A DNA stretch of 64,000 nucleotides from Escherichia coli (lineage in GTDB: Bacteria; Pseudomonadota; Gammaproteobacteria; Enterobacterales; Enterobacteriaceae). The position numbers and the translations under genes are program-made. Below the pieces are notes generated by a model, which worked only from the letters and a program-made list of their open reading frames with translations, had not been told where the DNA came from and ran no database searches. Of this stretch, positions 14,411-15,267 are shown piece by piece (the stretch's first letter is position 1; the number at the start of each line of letters is the position of its first letter). Where the stretch lies: the NCBI RefSeq assembly GCF_024502345.1, contig NZ_JALDNN010000001.1, one strand, 5' to 3'.

Positions 14411-14863
14411 ATGAATATATTTACTACGCGTCTGACGACCTCTCTGGTGGTCATCGGCACTCTGCTGCTCTCCGGCTGCGACAGCAAGGAAGATGCAGGC
14501 GTGAAGACGATTGCCCGATTTAAGGACCTGACTCCGCCGCCCTTCAGCGACGTGGTGGCGCATAAATCCGATATCGAGCAGGAATGGGTAAAAAAGGATG
14601 CCTTCGGCACACCGCTATACACGGTAATGAAAACTCGCCAGTCGCCGGAAGGCTGTGAGTCCGGCAGTTATTACTACATTGCTGATATGCAGCAGAAAAC
14701 GGTGCAGCCGCTGATAGCCGCCCAGTGTCTCGCGGACAATATTACTCTGAGCTTCCGGATCGAGACCGACAGCTACACGGGTGAGAAATCGGTGGTGTAT
14801 TCGCACTATGGCAAGGAAATGGGGAAACTCTTGCTGCCGGATAAGCAGGAGAACCATCCATGA
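14411..14863 (+). CDS. hypothetical lipoprotein (lipobox LLSGC, Asp at +2)
   Basis: 150 aa; signal peptide + lipobox; RBS aggga upstream; stop overlaps next start (ATGA). Confidence 0.7.
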   Translation: MNIFTTRLTTSLVVIGTLLLSGCDSKEDAGVKTIARFKDLTPPPFSDVVAHKSDIEQEWVKKDAFGTPLYTVMKTRQSPEGCESGSYYYIADMQQKTVQPLIAAQCLADNITLSFRIETDSYTGEKSVVYSHYGKEMGKLLLPDKQENHP

Positions 14864-15267
14864 AGAAGCTGAAAGGTGTTATCTCTGCTGCAGTCCTGAG
14901 TCTGTATTTGCTGACACCGGCCCATGCTGATGGCGGTTTTCAGGGTGCCATCAAAGGCGGCATTCCGGCCTACACCCGCGATGTAAAACACAACAAACCC
15001 TTCTGGTGTAACCAGTACAAACTGGTGAGAAAGATGTGTGAAGTGGTTTCGCAATCGGAAAATGGGCGCGTTGCCATTGTCAGAATGGTCCCCACCGACT
15101 GGAAATGCCCCAACGGTATCTGGGGTGTGGTTGACCGTTCTAATGGTGACGCCATGGAGTTGGTCCCGACGGCGAAAATGTCCCTGGAGCAGTACTGCAG
15201 CAAGGCATTCAGTGCAGGTTTTGTCAAACCACAGACCTCCGTCATCTTAAACTCCTGCAACATGTAA
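14860..15267 (+). CDS. hypothetical secreted/periplasmic protein with Sec signal peptide and 5 mature-region Cys
   Basis: 135 aa; MKKLKGVISAAVLSLYLLTPAHA|DGG; RBS aggaga; translationally coupled to upstream lipoprotein gene. Confidence 0.7.
   Translation: MKKLKGVISAAVLSLYLLTPAHADGGFQGAIKGGIPAYTRDVKHNKPFWCNQYKLVRKMCEVVSQSENGRVAIVRMVPTDWKCPNGIWGVVDRSNGDAMELVPTAKMSLEQYCSKAFSAGFVKPQTSVILNSCNM

Follow-up and report, generated by a model that had tools for sequence, protein, structure and literature searches.

In a 64,000-nucleotide stretch of Escherichia coli DNA (contig NZ_JALDNN010000001.1 of assembly GCF_024502345.1, hereafter the window), two overlapping genes, here called ORF1 and ORF2 (ORF, open reading frame), occupy positions 14411 to 15267. 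We found that this pair is best explained, with a probability of about 0.75, as the leftover of a variable envelope-protein segment of a CP4-57/CP4-6-type island, in which ORF1 is intact, ORF2 is truncated and the two are probable paralogues. The pair in the window is probably inactive, because ORF2 lacks its last two beta-strands, an IS5 insertion sequence (IS) cuts both genes off from the upstream regulator and promoter region, and the island itself is deleted and interrupted by IS elements. A sequence-only reading of the same DNA had taken the pair for an undescribed envelope-located module. For the locus itself our result is mostly a correction of that view, giving a named family, a truncated gene and a decayed island.

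An intact lipoprotein gene and a truncated secreted-protein gene

ORF1 (14411-14863, plus strand) encodes 150 amino acids and was matched by Pfam PF20494 (YfjS_YafY) in hmmscan with an E value of 1.7e-51, residues 38-149 aligning with positions 1-112 of the 113 in the model. The protein is 50% identical to YfjS of E. coli K-12, and its counterpart in E. coli ATCC 8739 (99.7% identical) carries the RefSeq name 'YfjS/YafY family lipoprotein'. Judged by these matches, ORF1 is a full-length member of the named YfjS/YafY family of inner-membrane lipoproteins, whose function is unsolved. Its N-terminus reads MNIFTTRLTTSLVVIGTLLLSG followed by CDS, giving a lipobox L-S-G-C with aspartate at +2; residues 1-22 form the signal peptide, Cys23 is predicted to be lipidated and Asp24 is the predicted inner-membrane retention signal. 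A Shine-Dalgarno-like GGGAG lies 5' of the start. Among 15 YfjS-family homologues Cys23 and Asp24 were invariant, Cys82 was conserved and Cys106 was present in 14, so the retention signal proposed for ORF1 from its sequence is a feature of the whole family. Within the ORF1 sub-lineage, members from Salmonella, Klebsiella, Serratia, Enterobacter, Pantoea, Yersinia and Xenorhabdus show 61-97% identity, and the ratio of nonsynonymous to synonymous substitution rates (dN/dS) of the ORF1 family was 0.12-0.14.

The K-12 proteins YfjS (island CP4-57) and YafY (CP4-6) have the same lipobox cysteine and Asp at +2, lie on the same type of island and occupy a corresponding slot, which in K-12 follows a WYL regulator gene and precedes a gene for a small secreted protein. 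The K-12 arrangement is yfjR-ypjK-yfjS-yfjT, and YfjS is annotated there as an inner-membrane lipoprotein. In K-12 a gap of 23 nt separates the lipoprotein gene from the downstream gene, whereas ORF1 and ORF2, which run in the same direction, overlap by 4 nt (ATGA). The window also lacks the regulator and the upstream genes that the K-12 YfjS locus carries.

A literature search for functional studies of YfjS, YfjT, YafY, YfjR and the signal-peptide proteins of the jumbo phage SPN3US returned none except work on YafY overproduction and Cpx and surveys of regulators. YafY is an inner-membrane lipoprotein of unknown function, and besides NlpE it is the only one of about 90 lipoproteins whose overproduction activates Cpx (PMC6538781, citing Miyadai 2004). 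The y-ome of E. coli still includes both yfjS and yfjT (PMC11551758). One survey classes YfjR among the single-target regulators, the target being its own operon, and places that operon under 'biofilm formation' (PMC8249747); no YfjR binding was found by chromatin immunoprecipitation with exonuclease digestion (ChIP-exo; PMC8464067). The YafY result raises the idea that inner-membrane YfjS/YafY lipoproteins are envelope-stress modulators which signal to CpxA in the manner of mislocalised NlpE, with the secreted paralogue tuning the signal. We give this idea very little credence: although YafY stands alone with NlpE in this respect, the responses to lipoprotein-trafficking stress were unchanged when yafY was deleted (PMC6538781), activation on overproduction is possibly non-specific, and the jumbo-phage clusters described below would be left unexplained.

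ORF2 as read (14860-15267, plus strand) has 135 codons, a Shine-Dalgarno-like AGGAG 5' of its start and a signal peptide, MKKLKGVISAAVLSLYLLTPAHA followed by DGG, with predicted cleavage between AHA and DGG. The ORF coordinates, the ATGA overlap, the lipobox LLSGC with Asp at +2 and the AHA/DG cleavage site had all been read correctly from the letters. The protein itself had been described as 135 amino acids long with five cysteines in its mature part, and here the comparison with intact relatives gave a different result. Only 14860-15235 is native, with the signal peptide encoded by 14860-14931; it encodes residues 1-125 of a 150-residue protein and is identical over this length to WP_000734138.1 of ATCC 8739 (150 amino acids, RefSeq 'hypothetical protein'). 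The remainder, 15236-15267 on the plus strand, is a junction-derived tail of ten codons (TSVILNSCNM) and a stop, formed by the out-of-frame 3' end of a DUF957 gene. Both the length of 135 and the fifth cysteine are artefacts, since a deletion swapped the last 25 residues for ten out-of-frame ones. The fifth cysteine sits in that tail and is absent from the conserved four of the intact family, all of which are retained in residues 1-125.

When a full-length ORF2 homologue was searched against PHROG profiles, family 17072 was matched over residues 19-149 with an E value of 1.4e-51. No match was obtained for ORF2 in Pfam, NCBIfam or PADLOC, nor for its paralogues. By these comparisons the ORF2 of the window is a truncated member of the rare, catalogued and uncharacterised family PHROG 17072 / WP_000734138.1, to which SPN3US gp085 and phiEaH2 gp105 belong. 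Common to the family are the signal peptide, the four cysteines and an all-beta domain of about 125 amino acids; the window copy differs from WP_000734138.1 in lacking the C-terminal 25 residues, which include two strands, and carrying ten unrelated residues instead. The earlier statement that neither protein was recognisable did not stand for ORF1, which belongs to PF20494 together with K-12 YfjS and YafY; the family of ORF2 has no Pfam entry and is catalogued as PHROG 17072. The ORF2 family is very small, with ten clusters in a word-indexed search of 5.8 billion proteins and nine hits in an exhaustive phmmer search of 1.84 billion representatives. Of 5426 complete E. coli genomes, 48 carry a gene of this family; strain BMH-17-0027 is among those in which it is split in two.

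The AlphaFold2 (AF2) model of a full-length ORF2-family protein, built from a ten-sequence alignment, had a predicted local distance difference test score (pLDDT) of about 90 in the mature domain and seven strands (60-65, 71-76, 88-92, 97-100, 117-122, 129-137 and 140-148). Strands 129-137 and 140-148 fall past the truncation point and are missing from the window copy. Foldseek with this model against AFDB50 returned many small Enterobacterales proteins named 'secreted', 'prophage' or 'lipoprotein' at template modelling (TM) scores of 0.6-0.65. The dN/dS values of the ORF2 and YfjS families together were 0.12-0.17, indicating that purifying selection acts on both families. The Pfam match of ORF1, the homologues in other species and these dN/dS values argue that both ORFs derive from genuine genes and are not chance frames.

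Two other kinships of ORF2 were considered and rejected. In a phmmer search of the PDB, UspE was matched with an E value of 0.003 and shared the motifs HNxPF, PTDW and KCP with ORF2; this was judged to be chance, and a profile made from 10 ORF2-family members found nothing in the PDB at E <= 10. ORF2 was also considered as a divergent IrmA (PF18673) or YfjT, and neither a match to the IrmA profile or fold nor detectable homology of the mature domains was found.

Pairing, probable paralogy and the jumbo-phage genes

A megablast search of the segment against the 5426 complete E. coli genomes found it in 70 of them, where ORF1 is annotated as 'YfjS/YafY family lipoprotein' and ORF2 as 'hypothetical protein'. 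The ORF1-ORF2 pair co-occurs in 45 complete E. coli genomes and also in Salmonella, at about 79% nucleotide identity. Related loci with the same 4-nt overlap are those of E. coli ATCC 8739, ET650 and BMH-17-0027 and of Salmonella Infantis. The co-occurrence check suggested in the sequence-only reading thus found the pair elsewhere, with a partner that varies among loci. The gene 3' of the yfjS-type gene is of the ORF2 family in ATCC 8739-like strains and Salmonella Infantis, of the IrmA family in ET650 and others, and YfjT/YkfB in K-12-like islands. Conversely, ORF2-family genes occur without YfjS after a GTPase gene (Salmonella Sandiego), after a WYL regulator and beside a resolvase. The YfjS-ORF2 pairing is therefore only partly fixed and not obligate.

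YfjT/YkfB and the IrmA family (PF18673) resemble ORF2 in their slot after yfjS, a length of about 150 amino acids and a Sec signal peptide, but their mature domains have no detectable sequence homology to it. The signal peptide of ORF2 is common to the IrmA-family gene at 17 of 21 residues. At the nucleotide level, window positions 14856-14930 form a repeat with positions 16593-16670 of the ATCC 8739 locus (79% identity), where the IrmA-family gene starts about 1.1 kb downstream. The yfjS-IrmA order of ET650, in which ORF2 and a DUF4339 gene are lost, looks like the product expected from recombination between such signal-peptide repeats.

The shared signal peptide and the shared slot could also suggest that the secreted protein is a host-interaction or surface factor like the neighbouring IrmA and Ag43, which acts outside the cell on host receptors or in biofilms, with YfjS as an accessory. 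IrmA has been reported as a cytokine-receptor mimic (PMC9431211), and the placing of the yfjR operon under 'biofilm formation' (PMC8249747) would agree with such a role. We consider it highly unlikely, since the mature domains have no sequence similarity to IrmA, homologues in lytic Erwinia and Proteus phages argue against a mammalian-host-specific role, and a Sec signal by itself takes a protein no further than the periplasm.

A link between the two families of the pair emerged through PHROG families. The full-length ORF2 homologue matched, besides PHROG 17072, also PHROG 8968 (E value 1.1e-10); a member of PHROG 8968 matched PHROG 5248 (2.3e-4), a member of PHROG 5248 matched PHROG 8968 in turn (3.2e-4), and ORF1 matched PHROG 5248 (3.2e-6). 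Alignment of hand-built family profiles with hhalign gave probabilities of 97.7% for PHROG 8968 against the ORF2 family (E value 2e-12), 84.3% for PHROG 5248 against the ORF2 family (7e-6) and 83.5% for PHROG 5248 against YfjS (8e-6). The AF2 model of ORF1 likewise contained seven strands (55-62, 68-75, 88-92, 97-100, 113-119, 126-132 and 135-141), which nearly coincide with those of ORF2, with one conserved cysteine just before strand 3 and another before strand 5 in each. The non-self Foldseek neighbours of the ORF1 model include Salmonella secreted proteins that are strong matches for ORF2. The profile matches and the models suggest that ORF1 and ORF2 are probably, though this is not proven, very distant paralogues in one superfamily of periplasm-targeted beta-domains of about 110-125 amino acids, which would probably comprise PHROGs 17072, 8968 and 5248 and the YfjS domain. 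Direct homology of ORF1 and ORF2 was rejected (hhalign 0.2%), the link being visible only via PHROG 5248.

A tblastn search found ORF2-family genes in jumbo phages of the Seoulvirus (SPN3US) and Erskinevirus (phiEaH2, Asesino, Stratton) groups, 31 records in all; for plasmids, one weak match was the only one. In SPN3US/phiEaH2-type phages four adjacent small genes represent PHROGs 9424, 17072, 8968 and 5248, corresponding to gp086-gp083 of SPN3US. The cluster occupies positions 4801-6522 of one locus analysed and 4613-6322 (SPN3US gp086-gp083) of another. All four products have N-terminal signal or anchor sequences and no annotated function, the first two genes overlap, and three of the four (PHROGs 17072, 8968 and 5248) are mutually related. 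PHROG 9424, the first gene of the cluster, was tried as a relative of YfjS, and the match was not significant.

The island of Salmonella Infantis carries, in this order, YfjS, an ORF2 homologue overlapping it by 4 nt, and a gene for a 136-aa protein. The last two proteins match SPN3US gp085 at 64% and gp084 at 71% identity, respectively, and their genes stand in the same order as in the phage, which indicates that the gene block has passed between jumbo phages and islands. A 189-aa gene upstream in the island was compared with phage gp086 and showed no similarity.

A hairpin-like motif, hydrophobic-Y/V-x-x-x-G/N-K-x-V/M-G-x-hydrophobic, recurs in similar form at the C-terminal end of all these small envelope proteins (YfjS, YfjT/YkfB, members of the ORF2 family, PHROGs 8968, 5248 and 9424), examples being VVMYYNGKPVGSFEY, VVYSHYGKEMGKLLL, VYVNDQKVGSFN and VVVEQQGKTVGSVPL. 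Apart from this motif, YfjT and PHROG 9424 gave no significant profile similarity to the others, and its presence in them may reflect convergence or a very remote relationship.

The decayed island around the pair

The deletion that truncated ORF2 has its junction at 15234/15235 (a position without strand), as established by comparison with E. coli ATCC 8739 and 99COLEC. In local blastn the window from 14287 to 15235 corresponds to 14908-15856 of the ATCC 8739 locus at 99.7% identity, and the match ends at 15235. From 15234 to 15718 the window matches 9001-9485 of the 99COLEC locus at 96.7% (blastn), beginning with the last 45 nt of DUF957 and continuing into a DUF4942 gene. Relative to ATCC 8739, ORF2 has lost its final 25 codons and the island about 5 kb, with the genes for DUF4339, IrmA, DUF905, DUF932, antirestriction, RadC, DUF987, YeeU/CbtA and DUF5983 and most of the DUF957 gene. 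Among the 5426 complete E. coli genomes no match reached across the junction, the maximum query coverage being 94%.

Upstream of the pair lies an IS5 element (13092-14286, plus strand), whose transposase ORF (13124-14140) matched NCBIfam transpos_IS5_4 with an E value of 1.8e-109. Its terminal inverted repeats are GGAAGGTGCGAA... and ...CTTATTCGCACCTTCC. The tetranucleotide CTAA flanks it on both sides (13088-13091 and 14287-14290); this could be a genuine target duplication, or it could be coincidental, a result of the target preference of IS5 after two copies had recombined. The segment homologous to the ATCC 8739 island begins exactly at 14287, the edge of IS5, and the element thus parts ORF1 and ORF2 from the WYL-regulator operon that lies upstream in intact islands. 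The WYL regulator, missing in the window at IS5, is present in the near-identical ATCC 8739 and ET650 loci. Between IS5 and ORF1 there remains an 89-nt stub (14287-14375, plus strand), the 3' end of a gene for a 211-aa hypothetical protein (WP_000772020.1) that precedes the yfjS-like genes in intact islands and lies at 14361-14996 in the ATCC 8739 locus. No promoter-like site above chance was found between IS5 and ORF1.

Downstream, the last gene of the island encodes a DUF4942 protein (15355-17450, plus strand) and is split by an IS3-family element; the two parts were recognised by blastn to 99COLEC over 15234-15718 and 16977-17455. The IS3-family element measures 1258 bp (15719-16976) and contains orfA (16612-16920) and orfB (15749-16615), both on the minus strand, with a transposase match at an E value of 5.3e-101. 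Beyond it lies a tRNA gene with anticodon CAT (17553-17628, minus strand), found by ARAGORN (as tRNA-Met) and by the Rfam tRNA model, which is the attachment site of the island beside mug. The matching gene beside mug is tRNA-Ile in RefSeq E. coli, and we take it to be the ileX of K-12. The island lies between nfeF and this tRNA, and strain CS18F has the empty site nfeF / tRNA-Ile / mug.

Intact relatives carry, in sequence, a GTPase gene, the WYL regulator (YfjR-like), a small gene, the YfjS/YafY lipoprotein and a small secreted protein, followed by DUF905, DUF932, antirestriction, RadC, DUF987, YeeU/CbtA, DUF5983, DUF957, DUF4942 and the tRNA. The DUF957/DUF4942 end at the tRNA confirmed the type of island. 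Seen against these relatives, the locus is a heavily decayed remnant of a CP4-57/CP4-6-type island at the CAT tRNA, which also upholds the mobile-island context of the sequence-only reading. In ATCC 8739 an intact version sits at a tRNA-Asp gene and not at ileX, beside a sil/cus copper and silver resistance cluster, showing that the same island type uses different tRNA attachment sites.

The region left of IS5 carries other material. Adjoining nfeF is a truncated tyrosine integrase of 237 aa (10761-11474), with 95.7% DNA identity to other E. coli integrases. It is followed, within 11894-13106, by two features of the minus strand, first an unannotated gene for a putative membrane protein of 238 aa, for which neither NCBIfam nor PHROG gave a match, and then the C-terminal half of a RepM/RepE-like replication initiator. 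All this material is unrelated to the CP4-type segment.

Possible function and meaning

Several points weigh against the view of the pair as an inactive leftover of probable paralogues and against the function proposed below. Read-through from IS5, or a weak promoter, could still give expression of ORF1, which is intact, so that inactivity is not proven. The paralogy depends on one bridging family, PHROG 5248, at a probability of about 84%. Compared directly, profile against profile, YfjS and the ORF2 family reached a probability of only 0.2-0.7%, which is not significant. The pLDDT of the ORF1 model is only 64, a moderate confidence, and the Foldseek neighbours it shares with ORF2 are weak (E values of 0.04-0.24). 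Finally, the sole phenotype reported for the family, activation of Cpx by YafY overproduction (PMC6538781), is not specific to exclusion.

The sequence signals are consistent with ORF1 being exported, lipidated at Cys23 and held in the outer leaflet of the inner membrane by Asp at +2. The intact ORF2 protein would be exported by Sec, cleaved after AHA and folded as a soluble periplasmic protein, with two disulfide bonds assumed from the four conserved cysteines, and translation of the two genes may be coupled through the 4-nt overlap. We tentatively guess that the superfamily serves a mobile element by periplasmic binding or blocking, although we regard this as doubtful. A form anchored to the inner membrane and at least one soluble form would exclude a superinfecting phage or DNA or neutralise an envelope-acting enzyme. 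The guess is drawn from the carriage of these genes by lytic jumbo phages and islands and from the layout of tethered plus soluble forms.

Envelope-acting exclusion proteins of mobile elements include T4 Sp and Imm, T5 Llp, RP4 TrbK and TP-J34 Ltp. Like ORF1 and ORF2 these are small, encoded by mobile elements and lipid-anchored or periplasmic, but no sequence, profile or fold similarity between them and the pair was found, and neither homology to known exclusion proteins nor a PADLOC match was detected. An inner-membrane-tethered form together with a soluble periplasmic one is a plausible layout for exclusion. The earlier proposal of superinfection exclusion, immunity or receptor masking was a reasonable inference, for which no similarity to a known exclusion protein and no PADLOC hit was obtained.

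It is very unlikely that the pair, as an inner-membrane lipoprotein with a disulfide-bonded periplasmic partner, is a functional, undescribed two-protein module with such a role in the source strain. In favour of it, both the export signals and the 4-nt overlap exist and are found repeatedly, the context is a mobile island, and homologues occur in lytic jumbo phages, whose periplasmic proteins often serve exclusion, as T4 Sp and Imm and T5 Llp do. Yet the family of ORF1 is already described, the window copy of ORF2 is truncated and lacks two core strands, the upstream operon is lost to IS5, the partner gene is interchangeable or absent at other loci, and PADLOC gave no match.

The proteins could instead be orphan immunity or inhibitor proteins against amidase or lipase effectors of the type VI secretion system (T6SS), colicin-like toxins or lysozymes, which would have built up on mobile elements as tandem paralogues. 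Their occurrence in tandem arrays, as paralogous small periplasmic proteins or lipoproteins with disulfide-capable cysteines, would suit such a role, as would the purifying selection on the families and a weak Foldseek match to an 'Inhibitor of vertebrate lysozyme family' protein (TMq 0.47). This also appears quite unlikely: none of the loci examined has a cognate toxin gene close by, and strictly lytic jumbo phages would be unusual carriers of T6SS immunity genes.

A bolder form of the guess, which we consider unlikely, is that PHROGs 8968 and 5248 belong with the YfjS domain and the ORF2 family in one undescribed superfamily of periplasmic proteins, whose genes form a tandem, translationally coupled cluster in SPN3US-type jumbo phages and CP4-type islands and shield the envelope of the infected or carrier cell. 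If true, this would be a new mechanism, in which tethered and soluble members bring about superinfection or entry exclusion or inhibit incoming lytic enzymes.

What the analysis adds is modestly new: the probable link into one superfamily and the connection to jumbo phages. In K-12 the genes for YfjS and YafY and those around them have long counted among the y-ome, with no function known (PMC11551758). The probable relationship of the YfjS domain to secreted proteins that are clustered in lytic jumbo phages gives a concrete route into these genes, and the homologues of gp085 and gp084 that stand adjacent and in the same order in the Salmonella island give a second handle. If the phage link is real, it would be informative for these y-ome genes and would change no established concept.

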